From contig OZ245000.1 of NCBI GenBank assembly GCA_965223375.1, positions 3,163,092 to 3,227,091 of the forward strand: a stretch of 64,000 nt of DNA, read 5' to 3'. Numbering within the stretch: position 1 is the stretch's first letter; each line of letters starts with the position of its first letter. This document shows, in pieces, positions 16,762 to 61,216 of this stretch. The notes beneath the pieces were generated by a model that saw nothing but the letters and a program-made list of their open reading frames with translations, made no database searches and was not told where the DNA came from. Source of the DNA: Candidatus Rariloculaceae bacterium (GTDB lineage: Bacteria > Pseudomonadota > Gammaproteobacteria > Steroidobacterales > Rariloculaceae). The position numbers and the translations under genes are program-made.

Positions 16762-16782
16762 TCACCTGATCCCCGGAGAACC

Positions 16783-19854: not shown

Positions 19855-19953
19855 CGAAGAGAACGTCGCTTGCCATCTTCCTAAGCCTCTGGAAATCGTA
19901 TAACGTCGGGATCGACGTTGCCCTTTTACACCAGAGCCGCGGGGGAATTAACC

Positions 19954-23612: not shown

Positions 23613-23780
23613 TGGTGTTTCCCGGCCGCGGATCTCGATCGATCATACCATCGGGCTCGTAATCTCGTTCCTGCGCCGTTGTTCTGGGACGCACCAGCTG
23701 CGTTGCCAAGGCGGACGATGCACAGTAGTGTCGCGAGTCATCAGGCGGTGAGGTACCGAATCCGGAGGAGGACGAGCTTG

Positions 23781-28213: not shown

Positions 28214-30519
28214 TATTCGTTACCTCCCACGACCGGTGCGCCGCCATTGGCGCGCGTGCGGAACGGGACGCTCCGGACGATTCCGCCGACCAGCGCCGAG
28301 AATCGGTAGTCGTCCTCCGCCGCCTCCCGAACGATAGCGCGAATCGTTGGCATGTCGTAGTGCTCGATTCGCCGCCCGAGCGCGTATGTCATCAGTTTCT
28401 CCGTTGCGGCGCTGACGAACGCCTCGCTGCGATCGAGCAGCGCCCGCCGCAACGCCGCGGGCCCGTCGATCGCGGTGCCGTCGGCCAGCGTGGCCTGCGT
28501 GTCGATCGGCCGGCCGGCATCGGCGTCGCGCCAGGCGCCGACCAGATCGAAGTTCTCGAGTGTGAGCCCGAACGGGTCCATGATCGCGTGGCACGACGCG
28601 CAGGTCGGGTTCGCGCGGTGGGCCTCGAGGCGCTCGCGAACCGTCAGAGCGATCTGCTCGCCGTCGTCGCCCTCGAGCGTCGTTTCGACATCGGGTGGCG
28701 GTACCGGTGCCGGCGAGCCGAGCAGCGTCTCGAGTATCCAGCTTCCCCGAATCACCGGCGAGGTGCGGTTGGTCACCGACGTGACGGTCAGGATGCTCGC
28801 GTGGCCAAGCAGCCCGCGGCGGGGGCTCTCGGGCGGAATCCCGATCCGGCGGAAATGGCTGCCGCGCACGCCGTCGTAACCGTAGTGCTCGGCCAGACGA
28901 TCGTTGACGAAGGTGAAGTCGGCGTCGAGCAAGCGCAGGATACTCAGATCCTCGTGCATGATCGCAGCGAACAGGCGCTGGCTTTCATTCGCCATCGCCC
29001 GCCGCAGGTTGTCGTCGAACGACTCGGCATCCGGCGTGACCGATTCGAGCTCGCGCAGGAACAGCCATTGGGCGGCAAAGTTCTCGATCAGCGCATCGGC
29101 CTTCGGGTCGGCGAGCATTCGTGCGACTTCGCCTTCCAGCATCTCCGGCTCGTGCAGTCGGCCGCTCGCGGCGACGTCGAACAGCGTGTCGTCCGGGATG
29201 CTGCTCCAAAGGAAGAACGACAGCCGCGTCGCGAGCTCGTAATCGCCAATTTCATATGCGCTTCCCGCAGCGAGGCCGGGGCGGTCCGTCTCGATGCGGT
29301 AAAGGAAGCGCGGATCCACGAGGATGCGGGCGACCGCATTCTGAATCCCGTCTTCGAAGCTGCCGTCGATCCGTCCCTGCTCGAAAAAGTGCAGCAATGC
29401 CGGCAGCTCGTCCGGCGCGAGCGGGCGGCGGAACGCCCGGGCAGCCAGCGCGTTGATGATTTCGGCGGCACAAGCCGATTCCTCGGCCGGCACGGTCGGT
29501 GCGCAGGCCAGAATGCGTCTGCGACTGGGCGTTTCGCCGACGCCCCGCGCATCGAAAGGCCCGTCGATCTCGATACTCTGAATGCCTGCGGACGGCGCCG
29601 GCGCCGAGTAGATGTCATCCACGCCCGACGCGCGGCGCGTGTCGACCAGTGCTGCGGACAGCGCGCGCGGGCCGGCCGCTACCGTGAGGCGAGCCCGCCC
29701 GCGCTCGTCGACTTCGACCGGTCTGCCGTCGATCGTCAGGTCGACCGCGCCGCCCGACCGGAAGGAGCGGCGCACGGCAATCTCGTATTCGGCGTCGAGC
29801 GGAAACAGGTGGTCGACGCGGAAGCCGCCGCGCGTGCCCAGGGGCAGGCCGTCCAGGTGGCGGTCCTGGCGCAGGTCCGGCGGCACGGTGTAGATGGCCT
29901 GCGTGCGCGGCGCGGTTCGATCGCCGATCGCCCAGCGGCTGATCTTCATCGCTGCCGCCACATACGACTCAATCAGTGACGGCGACGTGCCGAGCGCGGC
30001 CGCAATGTTGTCGAAGCCCTCACTGGAGTCATCGAGCGGGAGCAGCGTGGCCGCATCGATTTCAAGCGCAAGCAGGTCGCGAATGGCATTCGCGTATTCG
30101 GCGCGATTCAGTCGGCGAATGAGCGCCGGTCCGGGTGTGGGCGCTGTCGCCGCATCGAGTGTGTTTTCGAGTGTCGCGATCAGGGCATCGGCCCGTTCGC
30201 GCGACGGCCGAGGTTCGCCCGCCGGCGGCATCATGCCGGTCTTGAGCTTCCGGACGACTTTTTCCCAGACGTCTGCGTCATCCCGAATCGCGGCAAGGTC
30301 GCGATCGTCGAGTCTCAGCGAACCGGCGTAGTCGATGCCGTTGTGGCACTCCACGCAATACCGGTCCACGAGTTCGGGGACAGTGACCTTATCTCCGACG
30401 TCCGCGGATCCCTGCACCGCGTAGAACCACCAGATACCGCCGGCGACGGCGCCGATGCCGGCCAGAGCCGGCCAGCTCGTCGCGAGGATTCGGCGGCGGT
30501 TTCGGTTCGACTCTGCCAT
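28213..30519 (-). CDS. DUF1592/DUF1588/DUF1585-type multidomain protein with an N-terminal heme-binding CxxCH motif
   Basis: 768 aa. An N-terminal TM segment is followed by VDRYCVECHN. Its length and its pairing with DUF1552 are as in the planctomycete-type PSD gene pairs. Confidence 0.8.
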   Translation of the reverse strand: MAESNRNRRRILATSWPALAGIGAVAGGIWWFYAVQGSADVGDKVTVPELVDRYCVECHNGIDYAGSLRLDDRDLAAIRDDADVWEKVVRKLKTGMMPPAGEPRPSRERADALIATLENTLDAATAPTPGPALIRRLNRAEYANAIRDLLALEIDAATLLPLDDSSEGFDNIAAALGTSPSLIESYVAAAMKISRWAIGDRTAPRTQAIYTVPPDLRQDRHLDGLPLGTRGGFRVDHLFPLDAEYEIAVRRSFRSGGAVDLTIDGRPVEVDERGRARLTVAAGPRALSAALVDTRRASGVDDIYSAPAPSAGIQSIEIDGPFDARGVGETPSRRRILACAPTVPAEESACAAEIINALAARAFRRPLAPDELPALLHFFEQGRIDGSFEDGIQNAVARILVDPRFLYRIETDRPGLAAGSAYEIGDYELATRLSFFLWSSIPDDTLFDVAASGRLHEPEMLEGEVARMLADPKADALIENFAAQWLFLRELESVTPDAESFDDNLRRAMANESQRLFAAIMHEDLSILRLLDADFTFVNDRLAEHYGYDGVRGSHFRRIGIPPESPRRGLLGHASILTVTSVTNRTSPVIRGSWILETLLGSPAPVPPPDVETTLEGDDGEQIALTVRERLEAHRANPTCASCHAIMDPFGLTLENFDLVGAWRDADAGRPIDTQATLADGTAIDGPAALRRALLDRSEAFVSAATEKLMTYALGRRIEHYDMPTIRAIVREAAEDDYRFSALVGGIVRSVPFRTRANGGAPVVGGNE

Positions 30520-30523
30520 CGGC

Positions 30524-32143
30524 TCACTGCCCGCCTGCGGCCGGCCGCGATGGCGTGCCCTGGTTATCGCTTCCGGCGCCGGTCCCTGCTGCGCCGCCGG
30601 TCTCGGCTGCGTCGCCGGTCTCGGCTGCGCCGCCGATCCCTGCGCCTGCCGTGCGTGTGCCGTTGGCCGACGTCTCGTCCAGCAGCCTCTCGATCAGCGC
30701 TATCGAGCTCGGCTTCGGCTCGGCCGGGTGCGTTGCGAGAAAGACGCCGCGCGCCCAATCGAGCGGCGTTCGTCCCTCGTTGTCGGCAACGTCGAGTCTC
30801 GCGCCGTTGGCGACGAGAAACTCGATGATGTCGTCGGAGCCACGGTTCGCCGCTCCCATGACCGCCGTGATCCCCATCGAGTTCACGGCGTTGACGTCCA
30901 TGCCGAGTCCGGCGCACAGCTTCACGGCTTCGAGCAGCGCGGCCGGCCCCTCCGTGTAGGACTGCGAGACTACCCAGTTGACGCCGGCCGCTGCCATCAG
31001 CGCCGTCGTGCCGTGAAACGTCGCAATATGCGGGTCGGCACCGTGCTCGAGCAGTAGCTGCATCGTGTCGAGATCGCCGGCAAGCGCGGCCGCCAGGAAT
31101 GGCGTCTGGCCCGTGAAGTCGACCCACTCGAGCGTGCCGGTGATCGACAACAGTGTCTCCCGCACCGGCGGCGACTCGGTCGTGCGGGGATTCGGGTCGG
31201 CGCCCCGGTCGAGCAGCAGCGCTATCGTCTCGAACGCCGCGTCGCGATCGACATTGTGCTCGAACGTGTCGTTGTGCACGTAGAGATTCCTGACGTTGAC
31301 GGCAGACCAAAGCGGACTGCGGCCGTACCAGTCCTGGTGGTCGATCGACGCGCCTCTCGCAACCAGCATCGCGGCTGTCTCGAAACGCTGATTCGATACC
31401 GCCATCAGCAGTGGCGTGATGCCGTTCGCCTCCACGCGGTCGATGTCGGCTCCCGCATCGAGCAGGCTTTCGGCAATGACTGTGTGACCCTCGCGCGCGG
31501 CGTAGAGCAGCGGCGTCATGTCGCCGGGTCTGAACGGTCGCATGCCGCGGTCTTCCGGAAGCCCGCCGCGCACGATGCCGACCCCGAAACTGAACCCGGG
31601 GCGCGAGTTGGGCAGAATCCACTCGGGCTCCGGACCGGTACGGGTACTGGCATCGATGCGGGCGCCGGCGGCCAGCAGCCGTTCGGCGATTCCCGCATGA
31701 CCTGCGCGGGCAGCGATCATCAGCGCGGTCTGCTCATAAGCCGTATCGCGTGCATTCACGTCGACGCCATGCGCGAGCAGTGCCTCGACTGCGTGGATAT
31801 CCCCGCTTCCGACGGCGGCCATCAGCATCGTTTCGCCGACGCTGTCCCGGGCGCTCGGGTCGGCGCCGGCTGCGACGAGCAGATCGATCTGCTCGGCGTT
31901 ACCGTTTGCTGCCGCGAGATAGAGCGGCGTAACGCCGAGGCGGTTCGGGCGATTCGGGTCGGCGCCCTCGTCGAGCAGGCGCGCGGCACGGGTCGTGTCG
32001 CCGTGGCGGATCAGATCGAGCAGGTCCTCGGGCGCCGGCTGCGCCCCGACGGGTGCCGTCACGAAGAGCGTGATCATCTGCAGCGCCACCGCCGCGCCCG
32101 TCGAGACTCGGGGGTTGGGAAGTTTGGTATGCCGCATAGCCAC
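30524..32143 (-). CDS. Secreted ankyrin-repeat protein
   Basis: 539 aa with a signal peptide. It has many ANK units (GADPNRPNRLGVTPLYLAAANGN..., GVDVNARDTAYEQTALMIAAR...). The low-complexity tail reads GAAETGDAAETGGAAGTGA. It ends 4 nt before the DUF1592 start. Confidence 0.9.
   Translation of the reverse strand: MAMRHTKLPNPRVSTGAAVALQMITLFVTAPVGAQPAPEDLLDLIRHGDTTRAARLLDEGADPNRPNRLGVTPLYLAAANGNAEQIDLLVAAGADPSARDSVGETMLMAAVGSGDIHAVEALLAHGVDVNARDTAYEQTALMIAARAGHAGIAERLLAAGARIDASTRTGPEPEWILPNSRPGFSFGVGIVRGGLPEDRGMRPFRPGDMTPLLYAAREGHTVIAESLLDAGADIDRVEANGITPLLMAVSNQRFETAAMLVARGASIDHQDWYGRSPLWSAVNVRNLYVHNDTFEHNVDRDAAFETIALLLDRGADPNPRTTESPPVRETLLSITGTLEWVDFTGQTPFLAAALAGDLDTMQLLLEHGADPHIATFHGTTALMAAAGVNWVVSQSYTEGPAALLEAVKLCAGLGMDVNAVNSMGITAVMGAANRGSDDIIEFLVANGARLDVADNEGRTPLDWARGVFLATHPAEPKPSSIALIERLLDETSANGTRTAGAGIGGAAETGDAAETGGAAGTGAGSDNQGTPSRPAAGGQ
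30576..30645 (-). repeat. Imperfect 18-nt coding tandem repeat (AAETG-type tail of the ankyrin protein)
   Basis: gcgccgccggtctcggct / gcgtcgccggtctcggct, plus degenerate flanking units. Confidence 0.7.
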
Positions 32144-32189
32144 ACGTTAATCTGTCCGAAGCGACCGATGAATTCAAGGTGATTGGCAA

Positions 32190-33272: not shown

Positions 33273-33443
33273 TCACTGTCCGGCAGCACAACAGGGCGCC
33301 GGCCGAATTGGTGCTTGCGGTGGCGCGGGCGCCGAAAGAAAGATGCCCGGCAGGACTGCAGGTTGTGTGCGCCGGCGCCAGTTACAATCGAGTACGCCAC
33401 GGTATTCCACTGTGCCGTCCACATCGTCCCGGGGGAACTCACA

Positions 33444-35096
33444 ATGAGGCAGATGACTGACAGGTATGGCACCGCGCTGCGAGCGGTTGCGGCCGCCGTC
33501 GCGCTTGCATGCGGGGCGGCCTGCACACAGGAGGAAGCGCCGGGTGCCGACGATGCCGGCGATTCCAGCGGCGACAATCCGGCTGCCCTGGCCAGCAGCG
33601 CGCCCGGAGAAGGCACACCGGGTGCTGGCTGCGCTGCGCTGGCCGGCACCACATTCCCGAATACCGAGATCGAGTCTGCGACGGTTGTCGCAGCCGGCGA
33701 GTTCGAGGCCCCGGCACCGGCTTTCGGCGGCCCCCCGCCCGATTACTCGAACCTCCCGGCGTTCTGTCGCGTCGCAGGCTCCATTCATCCGACCGACGAC
33801 TCCGACATCCGCTTCGAGCTCTGGCTGCCTACCGACGACAACTGGAACGGCCGCTTCATGCAGACCGGCAACGGCGGCGCAGCCGGCAGCATCGTCGTCT
33901 CATCGTTGCCGGATCCGCTCGCCCGCGGCTACGCGGTTGCCAATACCGATACCGGCCATCAGGGCGGTGGCGGGTCCTTCGAGTGGGCGGTCGGCCATCC
34001 GGAGAAGCTGATCGACTATCAGTATCGCGCCGTTCACGAGCTGACGGTCGTCGGTAAGGCGATCACCGCGGCGCGCTACGGCCGCGCTCCGGAGGAATCC
34101 TTCTGGCTCGGCTGCTCGACCGGCGGGCGTCAGGGACTCAAGGAAGCGCAGCGCTACCCGGACGATTACGACGCCATTGTCGCTGGCGCCCCGGCCGCCA
34201 ACTGGTCGCCGTTGATGTCGCAGGCGACGCAGATCCAGTCGAATATCGGTGCAGGCGGACTCGGCGCGGACAAGCTCGCGTCGCTCAAGGAAGCTGCTAT
34301 TGCTGCCTGCGATGCCAGCGATGGTCTGGAAGACCGCATCATTTCCGACCCGGCGCAGTGTGCCTTCGATCCGGCGAGCCTGGCGTGTAGTGTCGAAACG
34401 TCCGACGGTTGCCTTGCCCCGGCCGAGGTTGCGGCCGCGCGCAATATCTATGCCGGCCTCGTTACGAGCGACGGCGATGTGCTGATGCCGGGCACGGGTC
34501 CCGGCAGCGAGCCACTGTGGGCTGCGTACGCGGGCGGACCGTTCACCATAGGCACGAACTGGTTTCGCCAGGTCGTGCTGAACGATCCCGACTGGGACCC
34601 TGCCGAGTTCGATGCCGATACTCACGTAGCGCTGGCCGAGCAGCAGGATCAGGGCGCGGCGGACGCGATGGATCCGGACCTGTCGGCATTTCTCGGGAAC
34701 GGCGGCCGGCTGCTGCTCTATCACGGCACCACCGACGGATTGATTCCGTATGGCAACACGGTTCGCTATTACGAGAGCGTCGTCGATACGCTCGGCGAGG
34801 ACGCGGTCGATGACGGCGTCCGGCTGTTTCTCGTACCGGGCATGGATCATTGTGCCGGCGGTGAGGGGGCGTTCGCGATAGATTGGCTGACTGCGCTCGA
34901 GGCCTGGGCCGAAGCCGGCGATGCGCCGGATGTCCTGCCGGCCGCGCGGCCGGCGGTCGGCGGCCCGCCCGGCGCGCCATCAAACGGTGAACAGCGCGTG
35001 TTTACCCGCCCGGCCTGTGCCTGGCCCGCGGTCGCGACGTATGACGGCTCCGGCGATCCCGACGACGCGTCGAGCTTCGAGTGTCGGGTGCGTTAG
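33444..35096 (+). CDS. Tannase/feruloyl esterase family protein, exported
   Basis: Start moved to MRQMTDRYGTALRAVAAAVALACGAAC (RBS ggggg). It carries FWLGCSTGGRQGLKEAQRYPDDYDAIVAGAPA, the family nucleophile motif. Confidence 0.9.
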   Translation: MRQMTDRYGTALRAVAAAVALACGAACTQEEAPGADDAGDSSGDNPAALASSAPGEGTPGAGCAALAGTTFPNTEIESATVVAAGEFEAPAPAFGGPPPDYSNLPAFCRVAGSIHPTDDSDIRFELWLPTDDNWNGRFMQTGNGGAAGSIVVSSLPDPLARGYAVANTDTGHQGGGGSFEWAVGHPEKLIDYQYRAVHELTVVGKAITAARYGRAPEESFWLGCSTGGRQGLKEAQRYPDDYDAIVAGAPAANWSPLMSQATQIQSNIGAGGLGADKLASLKEAAIAACDASDGLEDRIISDPAQCAFDPASLACSVETSDGCLAPAEVAAARNIYAGLVTSDGDVLMPGTGPGSEPLWAAYAGGPFTIGTNWFRQVVLNDPDWDPAEFDADTHVALAEQQDQGAADAMDPDLSAFLGNGGRLLLYHGTTDGLIPYGNTVRYYESVVDTLGEDAVDDGVRLFLVPGMDHCAGGEGAFAIDWLTALEAWAEAGDAPDVLPAARPAVGGPPGAPSNGEQRVFTRPACAWPAVATYDGSGDPDDASSFECRVR

Positions 35097-37942: not shown

Positions 37943-38560
37943 GTGAATTTCAATCTTCCTCCAGTAACCCAGGCGCTGATCCTGGTCAACGTCGTCGTCT
38001 ATCTCGTGCAGATGCTGATGTGGACGACGATGCTTGCCTGGTTCGCGCTCTGGCCCTACGGCACCGAATTCATCGATGCCCCCGGATTCGGTGTATGGCA
38101 GATCGTCACCTACGGATTTCTCCATGGCGGCCTGGCACATCTGTTCTTCAACATGCTGGCGCTTTTCATGTTCGGGAGCGAGATCGAGCGACTTTTCGGT
38201 GCTCGCTGGTTCCTGAAGTTCTACTTCGTTTGCATCGTGACGGCGGCGCTTGCGCAGCTCGCGGTCGCGGCATGGACGAGCGCATCGCCCTATCCGACCA
38301 TCGGCGCTTCGGGCGGAGTGTTTGGCATCCTGCTCGCTTTCGGCATGTATTTCCCGCGGCGAACGATAATGCTGGTTATACCGCCGATTCCGATGCCTGC
38401 CTGGTTATTCGTTACGCTCTACGGTGCGCTGGAGCTCTATCTCGGCGTCACGGGCATGGCGCCGGGCATTGCGCACTTCGCGCACCTGGGCGGCATGGTC
38501 GGCGGCTATGTCATGATCGTGCTGCGCCGCGGCGTGCGGCGCGGCGGCTGGCGTCGCTGA
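37943..38560 (+). CDS. Rhomboid family intramembrane serine protease
   Basis: 205 aa with a GTG start. It has six TM segments, the catalytic GASGGVFG and the catalytic His in HFAHLGGMVGG. Confidence 0.9.
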   Translation: MNFNLPPVTQALILVNVVVYLVQMLMWTTMLAWFALWPYGTEFIDAPGFGVWQIVTYGFLHGGLAHLFFNMLALFMFGSEIERLFGARWFLKFYFVCIVTAALAQLAVAAWTSASPYPTIGASGGVFGILLAFGMYFPRRTIMLVIPPIPMPAWLFVTLYGALELYLGVTGMAPGIAHFAHLGGMVGGYVMIVLRRGVRRGGWRR

Positions 38561-38658
38561 TCGGCGCGGCCGGCACGAACGATACGGCCGCACAGCCGGT
38601 CCGCGAACCGCCGCGTATCAGGGTACCAGGAGACAGTCTGGTCATTGGAGGACTTTCG

Positions 38659-40215
38659 ATGACTTCTCAACGATTTCACGGACGACGATCCGGGCGGCCG
38701 GCAGTCCTGTTTGCCTTATGGATTGCGATGTCCGCGGCTGGGGCCCAGTCCGGGCCCGAAGCCTGCGCCGAGCTCGCAACCTGGGCCGGCAATGCGGAGC
38801 TGAGGATCGACACGGCACAGTTCCATGACGGTCGCGCGGTCGATGGCCAGGGCGGCGCCCGCATCACGTTGCCCTCGCACTGCCACGTTGCCGGCAGTTT
38901 CGAGCATCGCACCGGGGTCGGTGGTCGCGATTACGCCATCGGCTTCGCAATCAACCTACCGGCTGAGTGGAATGGCCGATTGCTGTTTCAGGGCGGCGGT
39001 GGACTGAACGGGACCGTCCGCGAGCCCGTTGGCGCGGTCGCAGCCGGAGACACGCCGGCGCTCAGCCGCGGTTTCGCCGTCGTCAGCACGGACAGCGGTC
39101 ATGAAGGGGCAGTCTTCGACGGCAGCTTCATGGCGGATCAGCAGGCGCTGCTGAACTTTCAGTTCCTGGCGAATGCCAAGACCCTCGGTGTAGTGAGGCC
39201 AATCGTCGAGCGCTACTACGCGAGCGCGCCGCACCACAGCTATTTCGTCGGCTGTTCGACCGGTGGGCGTGAAGGCATGATCATGGCGCAGCGTTATCCG
39301 AACCTGTTCGACGGGATCGTCTCCGGGGCGCCCGCGATGCGAACGACGGTCAGCAATCTGGCGCTTCGCTGGATCAGCCACCAGTACGCGGACGTCGAGG
39401 AGGCGAATCCGCGCGATCCGTTCTCGGAGCAGGAAGAGAGGCTGATCATGGGCGCGCTGATGAATGCCTGCGATGCCCTCGACGGCAACGCGGACGGGCT
39501 GATCTTCAACCGCCAGGCCTGCACCTTCGATCCGCGCGATCTGTCCTGCTCGGCTGCCCCGGGATCCGCGTGTCTCGCGGACGACAAGGCCGAGGCGCTT
39601 GCCAGGGCGATGGCCGGCCCGGTCAGCGCGGCCGGCAAGCACGTTTATGCGTCGTATCCCTACGATTCCGGCATTGACGATGAGGTCGGGTTGCCGGGCC
39701 TGCTGATCGCCGGCGGCACTCCGCCGATCGGCCCGAACGGCGGCGACCTCGATGTGCTGGACGTCGACGCCGAGTACATCGACGCGCTCTCGGCCACCGA
39801 AGCGCTGGGCAGCACGGCGACCAATTACAACGTCAGCACATTCATCGGCAACGGCGGCAAGCACATCTTCTATCACGGCGAAGCCGACCCGTGGTTTTCA
39901 GCGAATGACACGCTGCGTTATTTTGAGCGCCTCGGCGAGGCCAATGCGGATCTGCTCCCCATCGAGGATTTCGGTCGAATGTATCTCGTCCCCGGGATGG
40001 GGCATTGTTCCGGCGGCGAGCAGACCGTCGATCGCTTCGACCTGCTGACGCCGCTGGTCGAGTGGGTCGAGGAGGGCGTCGCGCCGGCGGCAGTACCGGC
40101 AACCGGCGCATCGATGCCCGGGCAAGGCCGGCCGTTGTGTGCCTGGCCCGCCTATGCACACTTCGATGGCGGTGACGCCGCGAGCGCCGACAGCTATCGA
40201 TGCGCGATGCCCTGA
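38659..40215 (+). CDS. Tannase/feruloyl esterase family protein, exported (second paralogue)
   Basis: The track ORF 38020-40215 is over-extended. The real start is MTSQRFHGRRSGRPAVLFALWIAMSAAGAQS (RBS GGAGG). It carries YFVGCSTGGREGMIMAQRYPNLFDGIVSGAPA. Confidence 0.9.
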   Translation: MTSQRFHGRRSGRPAVLFALWIAMSAAGAQSGPEACAELATWAGNAELRIDTAQFHDGRAVDGQGGARITLPSHCHVAGSFEHRTGVGGRDYAIGFAINLPAEWNGRLLFQGGGGLNGTVREPVGAVAAGDTPALSRGFAVVSTDSGHEGAVFDGSFMADQQALLNFQFLANAKTLGVVRPIVERYYASAPHHSYFVGCSTGGREGMIMAQRYPNLFDGIVSGAPAMRTTVSNLALRWISHQYADVEEANPRDPFSEQEERLIMGALMNACDALDGNADGLIFNRQACTFDPRDLSCSAAPGSACLADDKAEALARAMAGPVSAAGKHVYASYPYDSGIDDEVGLPGLLIAGGTPPIGPNGGDLDVLDVDAEYIDALSATEALGSTATNYNVSTFIGNGGKHIFYHGEADPWFSANDTLRYFERLGEANADLLPIEDFGRMYLVPGMGHCSGGEQTVDRFDLLTPLVEWVEEGVAPAAVPATGASMPGQGRPLCAWPAYAHFDGGDAASADSYRCAMP

Positions 40216-41187: not shown

Positions 41188-42390
41188 ATGTCCAGATACC
41201 TGCGCGGCAGGCTTGCCGCCGTGGCGATCGCCACCGCCGTCGCCTCGATCACAGCTCAGGCCCATCATGGTTTCGGCCGCTTCGATATGCAGGGCGAGAT
41301 CAACTACTCCGGTACGCTGGTGAGCGTTGATCTCGTCAATCCGCATTCGTACATGAATTTCGTTATCGACGGCCCGGATGGCGAGCCGTTCGAGGTGCGG
41401 TGCGAGATGCGCGCCGCGATGCTGCTGCGACGCTCGGGCTGGAGCGAAGATCTCTTCGTGCCGGGCCTTCCGGTCGAGATCTTCGCCCGGCCGCATCGCG
41501 ACGACCCGCACTCCTGCTATCTCGAGACATTTACGCTCGGTGACAGGGCGACGGTAGATCGCAACGACCAGTTCTCGAGCGGCCAGACCGTCGATACGTC
41601 CGGCCGACCGCTGCGGCTCGCCAACGGCGACCCGAATATCTCCGGCGACTGGGCCGTCGAGCAACTCGTGCTGACGATTCCACCGGAGGGTGGGACCGGG
41701 GCACTGGTGCCGAAGAGCTTTCGTGATGCTTACGCCGCCGGCGATATCACGCTCGATGAGATCCGGGCGCGCAATCCGCGCCCTGCGCCGCCGGTCTATA
41801 CCGCCCGCGGGCAACAGGAAGCAGACGCATTCCAGATGTGGTCGCCGGAAGACAATCCGCGGCTGTCCTGCCAGGCGACGAGCATCATTTTCGACTGGAC
41901 GTTCGACTGGCCGATCAACCGCATCACGCAGGCCACGACGCAAAACGGCGATCGCGTCATCGATATCGATTACGGTCTTTACAGCTTCGCGCGGCGGATC
42001 CACGTCGGCATGTCCGAGCATCCGGACGACATCGAGCCGAGCAATGCCGGTCATTCGATCGGTCAATGGGAAGGCAACACCTTGACCGTCGATACCGTTG
42101 GTTTCACGGCAGGCGTGCTGGTGCCGCCGACGCGCAACAGCGAAGAGCTCCGTATCGTCGAGGAGTTCGAGTTCGATCCCGAAGCGCTGTCGATAACGCG
42201 CCGGTACACGGTGACTGATCCGGTTTATCTGGCGGCCCCGTATACCGGTCGGGACATCGTTTACCTGTCAGCGACGCCGTTTGAGCGGCACCCGTGCGAG
42301 GAGCTGACCTACGAGTTCATCGAGGGTAACGAAAGGCAGGAGGTTTCGCCGCAGGAACAGCGCGCGACGAGCGAGGCTTCGGGGAACTAG
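41188..42390 (+). CDS. Periplasmic fusion protein: N-module (AHH...NPHS, DUF6152-like) + C-module (GHSxGxWEGxTLxVDT)
   Basis: Start at MSRYLRGRLAAVAIATAVASITAQA|HHGFGRFD (RBS AGGAG). It carries VNPHSYMNF, RRSGW, GHSIGQWEGNTLTVDT and HPCEEL. Confidence 0.8.
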   Translation: MSRYLRGRLAAVAIATAVASITAQAHHGFGRFDMQGEINYSGTLVSVDLVNPHSYMNFVIDGPDGEPFEVRCEMRAAMLLRRSGWSEDLFVPGLPVEIFARPHRDDPHSCYLETFTLGDRATVDRNDQFSSGQTVDTSGRPLRLANGDPNISGDWAVEQLVLTIPPEGGTGALVPKSFRDAYAAGDITLDEIRARNPRPAPPVYTARGQQEADAFQMWSPEDNPRLSCQATSIIFDWTFDWPINRITQATTQNGDRVIDIDYGLYSFARRIHVGMSEHPDDIEPSNAGHSIGQWEGNTLTVDTVGFTAGVLVPPTRNSEELRIVEEFEFDPEALSITRRYTVTDPVYLAAPYTGRDIVYLSATPFERHPCEELTYEFIEGNERQEVSPQEQRATSEASGN

Positions 42391-45196: not shown

Positions 45197-45331
45197 TCCG
45201 TGGTGCTGGATGAAGCGGCGGCTCACATGGGATACTACCGGTGCGTCTCGCAGGAATGTTGGTACCCGGCATCGAGCCCGCTGACCGGCCTCGCGGCCGA
45301 TCCGGAGCGCCGACTGTCGCATGGAGTTGCC

Positions 45332-46111
45332 GTGAGCTACAACCCGTTTTCCGGTCTGCCGTGTCGGCCCTTGCTGTCGGTAACCACGCTGGCAGTGCTG
45401 TCGGTTGTGGCGACGCCGGCCCGGGCTCAGTCAGGGGGCGCCGTGCCCGATATCGCCGGTGTCTGGCAGTGGGGACAGTGCACCGGGGAAAACGGTTTCG
45501 GCTGCATGCTGCTCGAGGAAGACGATGATCTGCTGACCCGCCGGGCGCGCGCATATCGGGATGCCATCGACGAGGTTGCGCAGCCGAAGTACGACTGCGC
45601 GCCGATGCCGATTCCTCACATGTGGACGGATCCGTATTCGCACCGGATCGAACAATTCGATGACCGCGTGGTTTTCACCTACGGCAAGGACGACGTCGTG
45701 CGAACCGCATGGCTCGAGGGCAGCGATCACGATGAGCCGGCGGTCGGCGACTTCTACTACTTCGGCCATTCGCACGGACGCTACGTGGATGACGCGCTCA
45801 TCGTCGAGACCGCGAAGTTTACGTTCGACCCCCAGGGGCTCAACGCGGACTTCAAGATTCCATCGTCCACGCAGAAGAAGGTCACCGAAAGATACTCCCG
45901 GAACGGCGACGACCTCGTTCTCGAAGTGACGACGATCGACACGTTTTTTCTGCGCGAGCCATGGGTATTCGAGATCCGGTCGGCGCCGGATCCCGCACCG
46001 CTGGCGCTACCGTGGAATTGCGATCTCGAGGGCGCCAGGCATACGCTGCAGCTGCTGCCGAGCAGCTATCCGGACGACCCCCCGATCGAGCGGATCGAGT
46101 ACGAACAATGA
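45332..46111 (+). CDS. Exported stand-alone C-module protein (divergent GHSxG...VxT family member)
   Basis: GTG start at 45332 (GGAG upstream). The signal peptide reads ...LLSVTTLAVLSVVATPARAQ. It carries DIAGVWQW, KYDCAP, FGHSHGRYVDDALIVETAKF, KKVTERYS and WNCDLE. Its stop overlaps the next start (ATGA). Confidence 0.7.
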   Translation: MSYNPFSGLPCRPLLSVTTLAVLSVVATPARAQSGGAVPDIAGVWQWGQCTGENGFGCMLLEEDDDLLTRRARAYRDAIDEVAQPKYDCAPMPIPHMWTDPYSHRIEQFDDRVVFTYGKDDVVRTAWLEGSDHDEPAVGDFYYFGHSHGRYVDDALIVETAKFTFDPQGLNADFKIPSSTQKKVTERYSRNGDDLVLEVTTIDTFFLREPWVFEIRSAPDPAPLALPWNCDLEGARHTLQLLPSSYPDDPPIERIEYEQ

Positions 46112-46515
46112 GCATTGGACCGATGAAAAATCTCAAACTTCCGGCCGGCATGGTTTGTGCAGCCATCCTTCTTGCGGGGTCTTCCGCAACGGCGCATCAC
46201 AGCACGAACGGTATCTACAACGAAGATGAGCTCATCGAGCTGACCGGCACGGTCCGTGAGTGGCGCTTCGTAAATCCGCACCCGAGTCTGTTGATCGAAG
46301 TGACGACGACTGCCGGCGAGACGCAGGTCTGGGATGTCAGCTACGGCGGGCGCGCGGTACCGCATATGACGAGCGCCGGCTACACGGCCGATACGTTTCA
46401 GCCAGGCGACGTCATCGTCGTGAGCGGTTACGCGGCGAAAGTTGAGACGGCTTTCGGTCTGTTGATTCGCGGCAATCCGGTCAGGGAAGACGGGTCGCCC
46501 ATCCCGGACGAGTAA
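46108..46515 (+). CDS. Exported stand-alone N-module protein (DUF6152-like, AHH...NPH)
   Basis: MSIGPMKNLKLPAGMVCAAILLAGSSATA|HHSTNGIY...FVNPHPSLLIEV.... 135 aa, translationally coupled to the preceding gene. Confidence 0.75.
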   Translation: MSIGPMKNLKLPAGMVCAAILLAGSSATAHHSTNGIYNEDELIELTGTVREWRFVNPHPSLLIEVTTTAGETQVWDVSYGGRAVPHMTSAGYTADTFQPGDVIVVSGYAAKVETAFGLLIRGNPVREDGSPIPDE

Positions 46516-46544: not shown

Positions 46545-48716
46545 CTACGGGCCGCTGCTGAACGCGTCCAGCACCCAGGCGCTTACGTCGGTAATCTGCT
46601 GCGCGCTCAGGGCGGCGCCAAAGGCCGGCATATCGTTGCGGCCTTCGCGGACGATGCCTGCGACCTGTGCGATGTCGCCGAGTGCATCCAGCGGCATGCC
46701 GCCGCCATGCCCGCCGCGGCCGTCGTCGCCATGGCACGGCAGGCAGGTCTGGCGGTAGAGCTCGGCGCCACGCGTCAGGTCAGGCTCACCGGTTGCCGGT
46801 GCTGCCATCGACACCGCCGGCAGCAGCGACGTGTCGCCGGGCGCCGCTTCATCGAGCGTGCCGTTCAGTCCGAAGAGCCACACGCTGTCGCCGCGCGGCG
46901 AGCCGATCAGCGCGTTGCCGGCCGACAGGATCACGACATACTGCTCGCCGTCGTGCTCGAAAACGCTTGCCGGGGTGTTTAGCCCGGCACCGGTCTGAAA
47001 CTCCCAGAGCAGGCTGCCGTCGTCGGCATCGAGTGCCATCAGGCGGCCGTCGTTGCGGCCGGTGAAGATCAACCCGCCAGCCGTAGCCACCGACCCGCTA
47101 TAGCACTGGTCCGGCCATTGCACGCGCCAGGCGGCGGTATTCGTCTTCACGTCCATCGCGACGAACTGGCCCATCCGCGGCAGCCGCGGGTTGCCGGCGC
47201 GCCCGCCGGTCCACGACTGGTTGAAATCCGGTGGTACGTCCATGGTTAGATGTCCGCCCGTGAACGTGCCCGCGAAATCGGATGCGCAAACGAACAGCAA
47301 TTCGCGCTCGGGATCGTACGAATTCGGCGGCCAGCTCGCGCCTCCCCAGATGCTGGGTCGGGCGATGACGGGATCCGGGCCGAAGAACGGTGTGAAAATC
47401 CGACCCTGATTGACGAGCTCGAAGCCGAGCGGGGCGACGTCGACGTGCTGCGGTACGACCGGGTCACCGATCGGATACGGCTGCGTAGCGGCAGTTGCCT
47501 GGCGGGGCTCCTGTGGCACCGGCCGTTCCTCGATCCCGATCAGCGGCTCGCCGGTCTCGCGGTCGAGGATGTACGCGAAGCCGGTCTTGCCGACTTCGAC
47601 GATGCCGCGGCGCAGCCGGCCCTCGAGCTCGACGTCGAACAACAGCACCGGGTTGCTCGCGTCGTAGTCCCAGATGTCGTGATGCACCTGCTGGAAGTGC
47701 CAGCGGTATTCGCCGGTGTGCAGATCGACTGCGACGATGGACGACGAGTACAGATTGTCGCCCGGCCGAATCGCTCCGGAATAGTCGGGGCCTGGATTCG
47801 CCGTCGAAAAGTAGACCATGCCGAGCGCAGGATCGATCGCCGGTGTCTGCCAGACGGCGGCACCGCCGTGCTGCCAGACGTCGCTGTCGGCAGGCCAGGT
47901 GTCGTGACCCGGCTCGCCGGGGCCGGGAATCGTGTAGAACGTCCAGACCAGCGAGCCATCCGAATCGTCATAGGCCTTCACGCGACCGCGGGTGCCGCGG
48001 TCGGCGCCCGCGAAGCCGGTGATCACGAGCCCCTCGTACCAGACCGGCGCGCTGGTAATTGTGAAGCCTTCCTGCCAGCGCTCGGCCTGGATCGACCAGA
48101 CCGGTCTGCCGGTGAGTTGATCGAGCGCGACGAGTCGGCCGTCGAGCTGGCCAATGAAAACCTTGCCGTCGCCGATTGCAACGCCACGATTCGTCCAGCC
48201 GCAGCAGACAGTCGTGATGCCGGGATCGAGGTTCGCCGTGTATTCCCAGAGAATGTCACCGGTCGCGACGCTCAGTGCGAACACGTCATTGGCGCCGGTC
48301 GAGACGTAGATGACGCCATCGTGAACGATTGGCGTTGCCTCGCCCGAAAATTTCGGGTCGAGGCCCGAGCCGTTCAGATGCGTTCGCCACACGCCTTTCA
48401 GTCCGCTGACGTTGCTTCGGTCGATACGTATGAGTGTGGAGTAGCGCTGATTGAACAGGTTGCCGCCATTGGTAAGCCAGTCCCGGGCTGGCGGTGCAAC
48501 GAGTGCTGCTGTGGAAAACGCCGGGGCCGCCGGAATCCGGTTCGAGTCTGTCGCGTGTTCCTCCGTGCGCGAGTCCGTCGTTACGGATTGAGCCGGAACG
48601 CCGCCGGCGATGACCGCGACGACGATGCCCGACAGACAGGGCGTAGCCCGGTGCGGCGCGCTCCGGCGACGCGCGGTGGCGCGACGGGTTTCCTCAGTCA
48701 GCGGCGCGAATGCCAC
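46545..48716 (-). CDS. Quinohemoprotein PQQ-dependent dehydrogenase (alcohol dehydrogenase type with C-terminal cytochrome c)
   Basis: 723 aa. It has a vicinal CC (TTVCCGW), a propeller with W-repeats and a C-terminal CLPCHG...DMPAF heme c domain. Its GTG start overlaps the upstream gene by 23 nt. Confidence 0.9.
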   Translation of the reverse strand: MAFAPLTEETRRATARRRSAPHRATPCLSGIVVAVIAGGVPAQSVTTDSRTEEHATDSNRIPAAPAFSTAALVAPPARDWLTNGGNLFNQRYSTLIRIDRSNVSGLKGVWRTHLNGSGLDPKFSGEATPIVHDGVIYVSTGANDVFALSVATGDILWEYTANLDPGITTVCCGWTNRGVAIGDGKVFIGQLDGRLVALDQLTGRPVWSIQAERWQEGFTITSAPVWYEGLVITGFAGADRGTRGRVKAYDDSDGSLVWTFYTIPGPGEPGHDTWPADSDVWQHGGAAVWQTPAIDPALGMVYFSTANPGPDYSGAIRPGDNLYSSSIVAVDLHTGEYRWHFQQVHHDIWDYDASNPVLLFDVELEGRLRRGIVEVGKTGFAYILDRETGEPLIGIEERPVPQEPRQATAATQPYPIGDPVVPQHVDVAPLGFELVNQGRIFTPFFGPDPVIARPSIWGGASWPPNSYDPERELLFVCASDFAGTFTGGHLTMDVPPDFNQSWTGGRAGNPRLPRMGQFVAMDVKTNTAAWRVQWPDQCYSGSVATAGGLIFTGRNDGRLMALDADDGSLLWEFQTGAGLNTPASVFEHDGEQYVVILSAGNALIGSPRGDSVWLFGLNGTLDEAAPGDTSLLPAVSMAAPATGEPDLTRGAELYRQTCLPCHGDDGRGGHGGGMPLDALGDIAQVAGIVREGRNDMPAFGAALSAQQITDVSAWVLDAFSSGP

Positions 48717-49446
48717 GGCTTTCCTCGTGCTCGATCCACATGCCCTCGGTGCACTCGTATTCGAGCATGCGTATGCCCGGTGGCGCTGCCCGGTAGTATT
48801 GCCGCACGACGACCGGCTCCGAATACATCACCGGGTCGGTAATCGTCAGCTCGTTGACCAGCGCGGCCCCGCCGTCGATCGCGCGAATCCGTTCCGTAAC
48901 GTGTACCTGGTCGCTATGCGGCACCGAGCCGAAAGTAATCGCTTTGATGGCCGTCGTGTCGACCACCAGCGTGTCGCCTTCCCAGCGACCGATCGAATGT
49001 CCGTTGCGCTGCGGGAACGGGCGCTCCGGGTGCGCCGAACGATCGAGGTAGATGCGTCTTACCTGCTGATGCAGCTCCATCAGGAAGGTGACCTGGCGTG
49101 GTGTGACGATGATCTCTACCGGGTAGTCTGCCCCGCCAAGAGCGAGTGACGGCATGCCGGGCGACTGACAGAAGCGGCCCGGGTCGTCTTCTATCGGGTC
49201 GTGGCTCGCTCGCCATGCGGTCACGATCTCCCGGCCTGCCGGTGTATACGGCGGATCCGCTGGGAAGCGCTCGCTGCGGCTCGCGTCGGGCTGCCAGATA
49301 CCGGCAATCGTCGGATCATTCGTCGCCTGCTGCCCGGCCACGGGCAGAGCGATTGCGACAGCCAGCAGCGCGAGCAGTGCCCGGCCGGTCTTCGCTGCGC
49401 TGACTTTGGTGCCGGCAGCGGCAATGCTCAGGCGCCTGCCGGTCAC
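48694..49446 (-). CDS. Exported stand-alone C-module protein
   Basis: 250 aa. It carries IAGIWQPD, FCQSPGMP, GHSIGRWEGDTLVVDT, VHVTERI and YECTEG. Its GTG start overlaps the upstream stop (GTGA). Confidence 0.8.
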   Translation of the reverse strand: MTGRRLSIAAAGTKVSAAKTGRALLALLAVAIALPVAGQQATNDPTIAGIWQPDASRSERFPADPPYTPAGREIVTAWRASHDPIEDDPGRFCQSPGMPSLALGGADYPVEIIVTPRQVTFLMELHQQVRRIYLDRSAHPERPFPQRNGHSIGRWEGDTLVVDTTAIKAITFGSVPHSDQVHVTERIRAIDGGAALVNELTITDPVMYSEPVVVRQYYRAAPPGIRMLEYECTEGMWIEHEESRGIRAAD

Positions 49447-49931
49447 CGGCCAAATGCCGTGCCGTCATCGAGGACGATCGACCACATGTACATCTCGTTC
49501 ATGCCCCGGGCGCTCGGGTTGCCGACACAGGTGACCCGCAGGCCGCTTTTGAGGCGGTCGATGTCCCAGCCGCGACGGAGCAGCAGGTTGACGCTGCTGA
49601 ATTCGATCTGCCACACCGTGCCATCGCCATCGCCATCGCCATCGCCATCGCCATCGCCATCGCCATCGCCATTGCCATCGCCATCGGCGTCGCCATCGGC
49701 GTCGCTAGCAGTGACGCGCAGTGCCATGACCGAGTGCGGATTACGCACATCGACGCTCGCGATCGTGCCGGTCAGCGTGAAGTCGGTGACATCGAGGTCG
49801 TAGGCAACCGGCGAGTGATGCGCGAGCGCCGGCATGACGATCGATGCTGCGCCGATCGACGCCGTGCCGGTCACGATGGCGAGCGCCGCGACGGCCGGTG
49901 CGTGCAGATGGGCTTTCCCGCGACTGATCAT
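49443..49931 (-). CDS. Exported stand-alone N-module protein (DUF6152-like) carrying a (Gly-Asp)n insertion
   Basis: Trimmed to MISRGKAHLHAPAVAALAIVTGTASIGAASIVMPALA|HHSPVAYD (RBS AGGAGA). It carries VRNPHSV and LLRRGW, plus the run DADGDADGDGNGDGDGDGDGDGDGDGDG. Confidence 0.75.
   Translation of the reverse strand: MISRGKAHLHAPAVAALAIVTGTASIGAASIVMPALAHHSPVAYDLDVTDFTLTGTIASVDVRNPHSVMALRVTASDADGDADGDGNGDGDGDGDGDGDGDGDGTVWQIEFSSVNLLLRRGWDIDRLKSGLRVTCVGNPSARGMNEMYMWSIVLDDGTAFGR
49621..49704 (-). repeat. Hexanucleotide microsatellite (CCATCG/GCCATC)n, 8 perfect + 6 imperfect units, in frame
   Basis: ccatcg occurs 8 times consecutively at 49621-49668. The following units are ccattg, ccatcg, ccatcg, gcgtcg, ccatcg, gcgtcg. 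Confidence 0.95.
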
Positions 49932-51302: not shown

Positions 51303-52442
51303 TCAGTCGGGTGCGGCCGTAGGCGTCAGGTCCTCGCACGGTTCCGACGCGTACGGCACGTTCGAGACGATCATCGTGCCGGAACCGGCATGAATCGTAT
51401 TGAAGAAGGCCGGGTCGTCCGCCTCGTAGTCCCGCGTCAGAGTCATCGCGTCGGTGTCGATCGAAAACCGCTCGACGACGTGCAGCCGATCGCTGTGCGG
51501 TGTCGTGCCGAGCAGCACGCCTGGCTCGAACGCCACTGTGTCGACGACCAGCACATCGCCTTCCCACCAGCCGATCGAATGTCCGGCCCAGGACGGGCGC
51601 AGACGGGCCGGATGCGTCGTTCGCGTCAGATCCACGACACGCTCGCGGCCATGCGCGCCATAAGCGATCGTGATCTGTTCGTCGCTCTGACTGATGCGGT
51701 TCACCGGTTCGCCGCCCCAGTCGGAGACGATGCTGCCGGCAACGCAGGACCTTTCGAGCCGCGGTATCGACAACAGGCGCTCTCGCTCCGCCTGTCCGGC
51801 CGCGGTCAGCTCGACGACACTCGGAAAACTGCGTGGCGCATTCGGATCGCGCACGATTTCCGCCTCTGGAGTGCCGCGCGCACCCGGAATCTCCTGCTGG
51901 CCTTCCGGCACACCGCCTACACCGAAGTCCGTTGCCCGCGACAGCGCCACCAGCGTGCCGTCCCGGCCTTTCGGGTCGGTCATTATCCGCTGCTCGACGG
52001 CCCAGTCGCCCGCCAGATTCGGCTTGCCGTTGGCGAGGCGCGCCGGCCGGTCGACCTCGACCTCCGCGTCGATCAGCTGTGAATAGCGGTCGAGGCTCGT
52101 CTCGCCATCAATGGTGATTGTGCTGACGTAACAGGCGCGCGGATCTATCCGGTCCGGTGAGCCCTGGATCGACACGCGTGTTCCGGGTGGAAACATTTCA
52201 GGGCGCCAGCCGGATCGGCGGAGTGTCGTCGCAGACCGCATCTCGCAGCGAAACTCGACCACGGAGCCGTCGTCCTGCGTGACCTCGAAGTTGAGCCATG
52301 AATGTGGATTGACGAAGTCGAGACCGGTAACGACCCCCGACAATTCGATGTCCTCATTCATCGCGAACGTTCCGAAGCCATGGTGGGCGGTCGCATTTCC
52401 GCCGATCGCCACGGCAAGAACGGCGAGCAGTTTCTTCGGCAT
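51303..52442 (-). CDS. Periplasmic fusion protein: N-module + C-module (second fused paralogue)
   Basis: MPKKLLAVLAVAIGGNATA|HHGFGTFA. It carries VNPHSWLNF, RRSGW, GHSIGWWEGDVLVVDT, LHVVERF and EPCEDL. Confidence 0.8.
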   Translation of the reverse strand: MPKKLLAVLAVAIGGNATAHHGFGTFAMNEDIELSGVVTGLDFVNPHSWLNFEVTQDDGSVVEFRCEMRSATTLRRSGWRPEMFPPGTRVSIQGSPDRIDPRACYVSTITIDGETSLDRYSQLIDAEVEVDRPARLANGKPNLAGDWAVEQRIMTDPKGRDGTLVALSRATDFGVGGVPEGQQEIPGARGTPEAEIVRDPNAPRSFPSVVELTAAGQAERERLLSIPRLERSCVAGSIVSDWGGEPVNRISQSDEQITIAYGAHGRERVVDLTRTTHPARLRPSWAGHSIGWWEGDVLVVDTVAFEPGVLLGTTPHSDRLHVVERFSIDTDAMTLTRDYEADDPAFFNTIHAGSGTMIVSNVPYASEPCEDLTPTAAPD

Positions 52443-59968: not shown

Positions 59969-61216
59969 CTATTCCGCCCCGATGCCGGTCGTGTACTCGT
60001 ACGCGAGCTCACGGCACTCGTCCTCGGCGAACGGCGCGTCGGCCGGCAGAACGATGTCGGAGCCCGCATAGTCCTCGCGGAAGAAGAGCGGATCTCTCGC
60101 GACATAGTCGCGGGTAAGCGCCGCGGTCGACGGGTCTAGCGTGAAGCGCTCGACCACATGCAGCTCGCCGCTGTGCGGCACGAGCCCCGCAATGATCCCG
60201 GGCTCGAAACCGATCGTATCGACGACCAGCGTGTCGCCTTCCCAGTGACCAATCGAATGCCCGCCGCGGCTCGGCACGATGTCGGCGGGATGGGCCGACT
60301 GATCGAGCCGTACCGTCCGGGTCAGGCCACGCCCGTACTCGATCGTAATCGCGTCGGCAGTCTGGCTGACCCGGTTGATCGGGCCGTCGAATACCCAGTC
60401 GAACAGGATGCTGGTGATCTCGCACTGAATGCGCGGATGCTGCTCGGGCGGTGCATTGCGCAGCACTTCGGCCGCAGCCTCACCGGCGGCCGTCAGCGTA
60501 ACGGGGCGGGCGCCCCAGCCCGCGTTCGGCACGTCTGCGGCGGCGATCTCGCCGGCCTCGACGGCGGCAACCATGCTCTTCGGCACCAGCCCGCCGCGGC
60601 CGTCCGGTGACGAGGCGAGCAGATACTGCTCCTGCGCCCAGTCCCCGGCCAGATTGATCTCGCCGGTCTCCGTCCGGTACGGGCGGGTGCCGGGATCGGC
60701 CGGCGCGCTGTCGGTCAGTTGCTCCGTTAGCTGCTGATAGCGCTCGAGCGCGTTGCCATCGATCTCAAGCGTTTCGGCATAGCACGACGACGGGTCGTCG
60801 CGGTGCGGTCGGCCACTGATGACGATCGGGGCGCCCTCGACGAACAGCTCCGGCGACCAGCCCGATCGCCGCAGGACGGTGGCAGCGCGCATCTCGCAGC
60901 CCATCGAAAGCACGCTGCCGTCGGGCTGCATCACGTCGAAGTAGACATAGGAATGCGGGTTGACGAAATCGAGGCCCGTCAGAATGCCCTCGACCTCGAT
61001 CTCGGCATTGCGGTCGAAGCGACCGAAGCCGTGATGCGCGAGTGCCGGTGTCGCCGTGACGAGCAGCGCCAGAAAGGCGGCTCGACGGACGCCGGCCGAA
61101 GGCGCAGACGCGCGCTGCCCGGAGCGCTCGCCGCGGCAATGCCTCCGCGCGCTGGTCGGTTCGGTTTCACCTGCCGCCATGCGCGTCGCGTCGATCGAGT
61201 CGTCGTGGGTAGTCAT
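59969..61216 (-). CDS. Periplasmic fusion protein: N-module + C-module (third fused paralogue)
   Basis: ...RRAAFLALLVTATPALA|HHGFGRFD. It carries VNPHSYVYF, RRSGW, GHSIGHWEGDTLVVDT, LHVVERF and DECREL. The start is uncertain (61216 or 61180 rather than 61315). Confidence 0.8.
   Translation of the reverse strand: MTTHDDSIDATRMAAGETEPTSARRHCRGERSGQRASAPSAGVRRAAFLALLVTATPALAHHGFGRFDRNAEIEVEGILTGLDFVNPHSYVYFDVMQPDGSVLSMGCEMRAATVLRRSGWSPELFVEGAPIVISGRPHRDDPSSCYAETLEIDGNALERYQQLTEQLTDSAPADPGTRPYRTETGEINLAGDWAQEQYLLASSPDGRGGLVPKSMVAAVEAGEIAAADVPNAGWGARPVTLTAAGEAAAEVLRNAPPEQHPRIQCEITSILFDWVFDGPINRVSQTADAITIEYGRGLTRTVRLDQSAHPADIVPSRGGHSIGHWEGDTLVVDTIGFEPGIIAGLVPHSGELHVVERFTLDPSTAALTRDYVARDPLFFREDYAGSDIVLPADAPFAEDECRELAYEYTTGIGAE

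Follow-up and report, generated by a model that had tools for sequence, protein, structure and literature searches.

In a 64,000-nucleotide stretch of DNA from a Candidatus Rariloculaceae bacterium (GenBank assembly GCA_965223375.1, contig OZ245000.1, positions 3,163,092–3,227,091 of the forward strand; hereafter the window), five genes encoding proteins of the family DUF6152 were found (copies a–e, Table 1). The window was scanned in six frames for the pattern A-x-A-H-H followed by NPH[SP], which occurred in exactly five genuine open reading frames (ORFs). Two further A.AHH matches, one within an HXXSHH/DUF1552 protein and the other in an ORF of 27 aa, were dismissed. All five N-modules, as we call the DUF6152 domain, matched Pfam DUF6152 (PF19649) with E-values of 4e-14 to 9e-21 and scores of 52.8–74.3 bits (gathering score 27); the E-values of copies b and c were 1.9e-16 and 6e-17, respectively. 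In each full-length match, His1 of the mature sequence aligned at profile position 12. For copy a, PF19649 covered only residues 18–106, and its full-length alignment was with the fused family. Copies a, d and e continued into a second domain of approximately 250 residues, the C-module.

Upstream of the His-His pair, all five copies had a positively charged n-region, a hydrophobic core and a small −3/−1 residue pair. Cleavage sites were assigned from the −3/−1 rule and hydrophobicity, and the five cleavage strings listed in the initial annotation were exactly those recovered by the six-frame scan. NPH followed 27–28 residues past His-His. The leaders of copies a–d look like ordinary Sec signals. 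The leader of copy e (61037–61180, minus strand) measured 48 or 60 residues from the only in-frame ATG/GTG/TTG starts and contained the sequence VRRAAFLALL. It faintly resembles a twin-arginine signal, so that the export route of copy e appears less certain than that of the other copies.

The start of copy b was ambiguous: translation from 46108, which overlaps the stop of the upstream gene, gives a precursor of 135 aa, and translation from 46123 gives one of 130 aa. Homologues begin at the second Met. The mature N terminus is identical with either start; the signal peptide ends at 46194 and the predicted mature protein (46195–46512) has 106 aa. Copy b had 134 homologues, all of them DUF6152 and all unnamed. 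Across 39 of these, H30, H31, S32, N56-P57-H58 and H86 were invariant (precursor numbering). At 46357–46380 (HMTSAGY), Ser-Ala replaced an Arg-Arg that was nearly invariant in 38 homologues (consensus H-L-x-R-R-G-Y); copy b kept all three invariant His despite this loss. In copy c, a 6-bp unit (GCCATC on the plus strand) was repeated 13 times at 49620–49698 and encodes a Gly-Asp run of approximately 26 residues in the loop between strands β2 and β3. Since the orthologues on three long contigs (L065–L067) have a short NDDGS loop instead, this run is a recent in-frame microsatellite expansion. A weak TrAA12 Pfam match in copy c was produced by the Gly-Asp repeat and was discounted.

Conservation of the N-terminal motif

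Copy b shared only 21–31% identity with the other four N-modules. An alignment of 65 sequences, containing all five window copies and spanning all subtypes, had as its sole invariant residues H1, H2, G18, N27, P28, H29 and three more Gly. Invariant side chains with chemical function were limited to His1, His2 and the Asn and His of NPH. The pattern of HH and NPH reflects conservation rather than chance, because it is invariant despite 21–31% identity, and since the invariant set otherwise consists of Asn, Pro and Gly, the three His are the only conserved potential ligands. The second His, described as invariant in NPH[SP] by the initial annotation, was so in both respects: NPH[SP] was present in all five copies, and H29 was invariant in the alignment.

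The fused form had more than 3,397 homologues. Among 64 aligned fused relatives, a single one, N-terminally truncated, was without His-His; all 63 complete sequences had it, preceded by Ala at −1 in 61 and by Ala at −3 in 57. A search of 1.84 billion cluster representatives with the family profile returned 13,157 DUF6152 matches at E ≤1e-3 and 5,247 at E ≤1e-10. Family-wide counts were made on the best 150 of the 13,157, each from a separate 50%-identity cluster. His-His was present in 146 of the 150 (approximately 97%); the other four seem to be cases of a mis-called or truncated N terminus or a lone Ser-His variant. NPH was found in 144 representatives and SPH in the other six, with a spacing of 27–29 from His1 to the NPH His in 142. 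Position −1 was Ala in 134 of 145 representatives (92%), position −3 was A, V, L, S, T or G, and a hydrophobic core lay directly upstream in 144 of 145. The N-terminal tail followed a pattern of fixed length, H-H-[SG]-x4-[FY]-D. Since both the tail length and the His1–NPH spacing are fixed, the tail is a structured element and not a floppy end.

A conserved His at the predicted +1 position, the defining feature of the N-terminal-histidine class, was thus seen in 5/5 window copies, 63/63 complete fused relatives and 146/150 representatives. For comparison, a background of 2.6% has been published for a His in this position of cleaved proteins (PMC12537917). The predicted mature His-His was confirmed as a signature of the whole DUF6152 family. 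The strict His at +1 of an exported protein, noted earlier for the window copies, therefore holds family-wide, in the form of His-His with a near-fixed spacing to NPH.

No NCBIfam model matched any of the five N-modules, and Pfam searches of the mature sequences at E up to 10 gave nothing meaningful besides DUF6152. Sequence and profile searches of the PDB with the fused protein, the N-module profile and the C-module profile gave no match, so no solved relative was found. Literature searches returned no paper on DUF6152/PF19649, nor any on a histidine brace or N-terminal His with an OB-fold.

Fold of the N-module and pairing with the C-module

The AlphaFold2 model of the mature N-module of copy b had a mean predicted local distance difference test score (pLDDT) of 91.7 and the topology β1-β2-β3-helix-β4-β5. 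The N-module had the same topology in the full-length model of copy d (pLDDT 91.0, predicted template modelling score 0.85). The closest Foldseek matches of the N-module in the PDB were the anticodon-binding OB (oligonucleotide/oligosaccharide-binding) domain of LysRS, SSB and RPA (E approximately 2e-4, TM approximately 0.5). The models showed the five strands of an OB-fold and a helix between strands 3 and 4, with the invariant Gly18 in strand 1; a Gly-mediated bend in strand 1 is a classical feature of this fold. As modelled, the N-module is an OB-fold and not a β-sandwich. The NPH motif of copy b is in the loop that connects strand 1 to strand 2, and the alignments show a conserved Asp or Glu on strand 3.

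Coevolution was analysed as mutual information with average-product correction (MI-APC) on 383 mature N-modules (effective sequence number, Neff, 191). The analysis recovered real contacts, namely the ladder between strands 2 and 3 (35–43, 35–45, 37–43 and 38–44) and the Cys48–Cys89 pair. The strongest pair overall was 30–49, which joins the residue after the NPH His to the end of strand 3. Tail positions 3, 4, 7 and 8 coupled best with positions 30/31 and 47–51. In a subset restricted to HHS sequences (Neff 119), the pattern persisted for tail positions 4–8 (z 3–5). These couplings weakly support a single cluster in which the N-terminal tail meets the NPH loop and the end of strand 3. In the fused model, mature residues 7 and 26 were each in an isolated β-bridge; a possible pairing of the two was given no weight.

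The C-module had no match in Pfam, NCBIfam or a PDB profile search. Foldseek with the full-length copy d model returned OB-fold matches only, so the C-module is without a detectable solved analogue. A GxW motif and one Cys pair were conserved in it, as was one residue each of Arg, Glu and Asp. In the fused form, the C-module motifs GHS and HP contain His; these were considered as universal ligands and dropped, being not conserved in copy-b-type C-modules.

Copies b and c, which lack a fused C-module, each adjoin a separate C-module gene (Table 1). Depending on the start used, the gene upstream of copy b overlaps the copy b gene by 4 bp or stops 11 bp short of it. A genome scan returned 60 loci, mostly from uncultured Gammaproteobacteria (Steroidobacteraceae, Pseudohongiellaceae and others), with a minority from a few Alphaproteobacteria and Acidobacteriota and one attributed to Pirellulaceae. 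A C-module gene lay directly upstream of the copy-b-type N-module gene in 53 of the 57 non-redundant loci with upstream DNA. The copy-c-type C-module had more than 3,377 homologues at 70–89% identity, all hypothetical and none with a Pfam domain or a name. Its arrangement, an N-module gene followed by a C-module gene with an ATGA overlap, was kept in 3/3 long contigs (L065–L067). Since fused N-C, split C-then-N and split N-then-C forms all occur, the two modules act as one unit. The N-module came first in every fusion, and HH stood behind its own signal peptide even in over-long ORF calls. This constant order and the separate signal peptide fit a need for a free α-amino group.

With five N-modules and six C-modules in 64 kb, the window is rich in family paralogues, and nine family ORFs occurred within 20 kb in a related locus (L040). 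Such paralogue expansion is typical of the DUF6152 family. The sixth C-module, identified with phmmer against the copy-c C-module (E 4e-32), had no Pfam match and no adjoining N-module gene; it lies downstream of a TonB-dependent receptor gene and, judging from an LLIAC signal, is probably a lipoprotein. Because partnerless C-modules were also present in several related loci, the C-module family is wider than DUF6152.

A candidate metal site at the N terminus

The analysis established the motif and its conservation across the family, the predicted export, the OB-fold and the obligatory pairing of N- and C-modules. From these we infer that DUF6152 proteins are periplasmic two-module metalloproteins with a site built from the N-terminal His and from His2 and/or the NPH His. 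We give this reading a probability of roughly 50%; metal binding, the choice of ligand residues and any catalysis are its inferred parts. Signal peptidase I would cut at A-x-A, leaving a mature chain that begins with His1-His2. His1 would chelate a divalent transition-metal ion through its free α-amino group and its imidazole, and His2 and/or the His of the NPH loop would complete a site of three or four nitrogens. Such a site, either histidine-brace-like or tri-histidine, would have no precedent on this fold. With His2 as the third nitrogen donor, it would be a tri-histidine site and not the two-His brace proposed initially. The N-module would work with the fused or separately exported β-rich C-module, with its GxW motif and one conserved disulfide, and the C-module, which differs between paralogues, would probably supply the pocket for a ligand or substrate. 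Because the candidate ligands are all nitrogen and include neither Met nor Cys, Cu(II), Ni(II), Zn(II), Co(II) or Fe(II) would fit better than Cu(I).

A conserved N-terminal His earlier led to the lytic polysaccharide monooxygenases (LPMOs) and, in 2025, to four more bacterial metalloprotein classes. The 2025 survey covered proteins with a His right after the signal peptide and characterised DUF4198, DUF6702, Ang-1 and Ang-2, all four of which bound metal; DUF6152 is not mentioned in it (PMC12537917). DUF4198 binds Ni through His1 and His18, and DUF6702 binds Ni, Co and Cu through His1, His28 and His32 (PMC12537917). The metals bound by the families of the survey were Ni, Co or Cu, with little or no oxidase or peroxidase activity; DUF4198 and DUF6702 are β-sandwiches, and the anglerases were described as sharing this architecture (PMC12537917). 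Like DUF4198 and DUF6702, DUF6152 is a bacterial family, predicted to be exported, with a conserved His after the signal peptide, a further conserved His (approximately 17–31 residues on in those families, at 28/29 in DUF6152) and no clear enzymatic context. Unlike them, it has a predicted OB-fold, bears no sequence relation to either, needs a second module, fused or next door, and has His as its second residue as well. Its His1 is conserved in approximately 97% of sequences, compared with 65–79% in those two families. The precedent would accordingly be functional and not evolutionary. DUF6152 shows the N-terminal His more strictly than the four 2025 classes, and it is very large (13,157 representatives at 50% identity), with no literature or structure found. 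The OB-fold has not previously been linked to N-terminal-His chemistry. If the site binds metal, the histidine-brace principle would extend to the OB-fold, and a function would be assigned to the N-module and the unnamed C-module, each a large family of hypothetical proteins. Uncultured environmental bacteria carry both families in abundance, with expansions in catabolic gene regions.

Several observations weigh against a metal site. The OB-fold differs from the fold of every characterised N-terminal-His metal site. The first ten residues were poorly placed, with a mean pLDDT of 67 in the N-module-only model, where two of them fell below 50, and of 77 in the fused model; on the values of the former, the apo model does not fix His1 and His2. 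The coevolution signal may partly reflect residual subfamily structure. Five to six paralogues per 64 kb would be unusual for a metal chaperone. Finally, no Cu, Ni or Zn transporter, regulator or chaperone recurred near the genes in 58 related loci, from which 503 ORFs were clustered, or on the long contigs. The genes that did recur nearby encode histidine kinases, an ABC ATPase, GST, OmpA, QueF, MATE and SRAP proteins, which are uninformative because they reflect the synteny of one clade. The context neither points to a metal nor supports copper specifically.

In the reading of the initial annotation, the site would be a genuine copper brace as in LPMOs, CopC and PmoB. Cu(II) would then be coordinated in a T-shape by the His1 amine and imidazole and by the NPH His, and the protein would be a redox enzyme (oxidase or peroxygenase) or a copper carrier. 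We consider this reading unlikely. DUF6152 shares with LPMOs (AA9/AA10), CopC and PmoB a predicted mature N-terminal His at +1, a second His, here invariant, and an extracytoplasmic location, and its conserved aromatic residue at +8 could sit near the axial position. The expansion of paralogues looks more like that of an enzyme family than of a chaperone, and the gene regions are rich in periplasmic oxidative and hydrolytic enzymes (a pyrroloquinoline quinone (PQQ) dehydrogenase, a copper amine oxidase, tannases and dioxygenase-type proteins). However, the modelled OB-fold is unlike the immunoglobulin- or cupredoxin-like sandwich of those proteins, and the invariant His2 would add a fourth nitrogen, unlike in the classical brace. 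No sequence relation to LPMO_10, CopC or YcnI was detected even at E up to 10, and neither Pfam nor PDB profiles indicated homology. In contrast to LPMOs, no flat polysaccharide-binding surface or carbohydrate-binding module was evident, and the copper-resistance operon context of CopC was absent around DUF6152 genes in the 58 loci. Of the brace reading, the conserved predicted His at +1 stands, and membership among LPMOs, CopC or PmoB fails on fold and homology. This failure lowers the standing of the claim that DUF6152 belongs to these families, not of the claim that it works like them. The copper amine oxidase cited as context is encoded in the window (Table 1), but at a distance of 27 kb, and the 58 loci show no recurrent copper gene, which makes that argument weak.

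In CusF, a periplasmic OB-fold protein, Cu(I)/Ag(I) is held by internal His, Met and Trp side chains and not by the N terminus. DUF6152 resembles CusF as a small, predicted periplasmic OB-fold that could hold a metal. In contrast to CusF, it has no conserved Met or Cys ligands, and no CusF-type Pfam match was obtained at E up to 10.

A non-catalytic role in metal sequestration or trafficking, as a "sequesterase" for Ni, Co, Zn or Cu like DUF4198 and DUF6702, with the C-module as a docking partner, appears decidedly unlikely. It would be in line with the tight metal binding and little or no oxidase or peroxidase activity of the four N-terminal-His families (PMC12537917), and the tri-histidine site of DUF6702 (His1, His28, His32) has nearly the same spacing. 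Moreover, a coordination sphere filled by three His and the amine would suggest tight binding over an open catalytic site. Against this stand the absence of a conserved transporter, TonB or NikR-type association (TonB receptors were present in only approximately 6 of the 58 loci), the many paralogues per genome with divergent C-modules, and the copy-c C-module itself, whose 70–89% identity over more than 100 clusters suggests a specific activity of its own.

Comparably improbable is that His-His and NPH are no metal ligands at all and instead form an acid–base catalytic site, a site for an anionic ligand or cofactor (together with the Arg-Arg after β3) or a contact surface for the C-module: the best fold matches are domains whose OB ligand-binding face takes oligonucleotides, sugars or small ligands, the NPH loop has a conserved L-x-R-R-x-G-[WY] segment and the acidic β3 residue close by, and the apo models leave the N-terminal residues poorly placed. 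Against this reading, three invariant imidazoles and a free amine make a textbook chelate, copy b has lost the Arg-Arg yet retains all His, and we know of no family with a strictly conserved mature N-terminal His in a non-metal role.

A more far-reaching proposal is a long shot. DUF6152 and the C-module might constitute an unrecognised class of periplasmic oxidative enzyme using copper or another metal, in which a brace-like site on the OB-fold would activate O2 or H2O2 and a barrel-like C-module would hold small organic compounds (aromatic, lignin-derived or hydrocarbon). The paralogues would then give uncultured Gammaproteobacteria and Acidobacteriota of soil and water their range of substrates.

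Genes surrounding the DUF6152 copies

The whole window is a catabolic region. It encodes two tannase/feruloyl esterases, amidohydrolases, a PETase-like hydrolase, a carboxylesterase, glyoxalase/dioxygenase-type proteins, a molybdenum hydroxylase, a gluconolactonase-like protein, a nitronate monooxygenase and a TonB-dependent receptor. With its tannase/feruloyl-esterase paralogues near the DUF6152 genes and the PETase-like, carboxylesterase and amidohydrolase genes farther off, the region resembles a catabolic island devoted to aromatic esters.

Table 1. Features of the window, with positions counted from its first nucleotide; arrows mark predicted signal peptide cleavage
Feature	Position	Strand	Description	Motifs
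Copy a	41188–42390	+	Fused N-module and C-module	AQA↓HHGFG, NPHS
Copy b	46108–46515	+	N-module alone	ATA↓HHSTN, NPHP
His-His codons of copy b	46195–46200	+	Predicted mature N terminus	HH
N-P-H motif of copy b	46273–46281	+	Mature N27-P28-H29	NPH
Copy c	49443–49931	−	N-module alone	ALA↓HHSPV, NPHS
Copy d	51303–52442	−	Fused N-module and C-module; source of full-length model	ATA↓HHGFG, NPHS
Copy e	59969–61180	−	Fused N-module and C-module; start uncertain	ALA↓HHGFG, NPHS
C-module partner of copy b	45200–46111	+	Directly upstream of copy b; own export signal; no Pfam/NCBIfam match
C-module partner of copy c	48694–49446	−	Downstream of copy c; 4-bp GTGA overlap
Sixth C-module	23679–24590	+	No adjoining N-module gene
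TonB-dependent receptor	19918–22875		Upstream of the sixth C-module
Copper amine oxidase	16762–18753
Tannase/feruloyl esterase	33273–35096	+	Near DUF6152 genes
Tannase/feruloyl esterase	38020–40215	+	Near DUF6152 genes
PQQ quinohemoprotein dehydrogenase	46545–48716	−	PQQ propeller and C-terminal cytochrome c domain; between the two split pairs
HXXSHH/DUF1552, PSD/PSCyt and ankyrin-repeat proteins	26831–32146	−	Three genes

A PQQ dehydrogenase also adjoined the DUF6152 family in a related locus (L001). It was considered as an obligate partner and rejected, since it was present in only 8 of 59 related loci. The PQQ dehydrogenase of the window contains the sequence WDYD; an Asp two residues past the catalytic Asp marks lanthanide-dependent PQQ dehydrogenases. 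Additionally, the window encodes a trio of an HXXSHH/DUF1552 protein, a multi-domain PSD/PSCyt (DUF1585–1595) cytochrome-c-like protein and an ankyrin-repeat protein. The same trio was found near DUF6152 genes in another related locus (L004), and ankyrin proteins recurred in six related loci.

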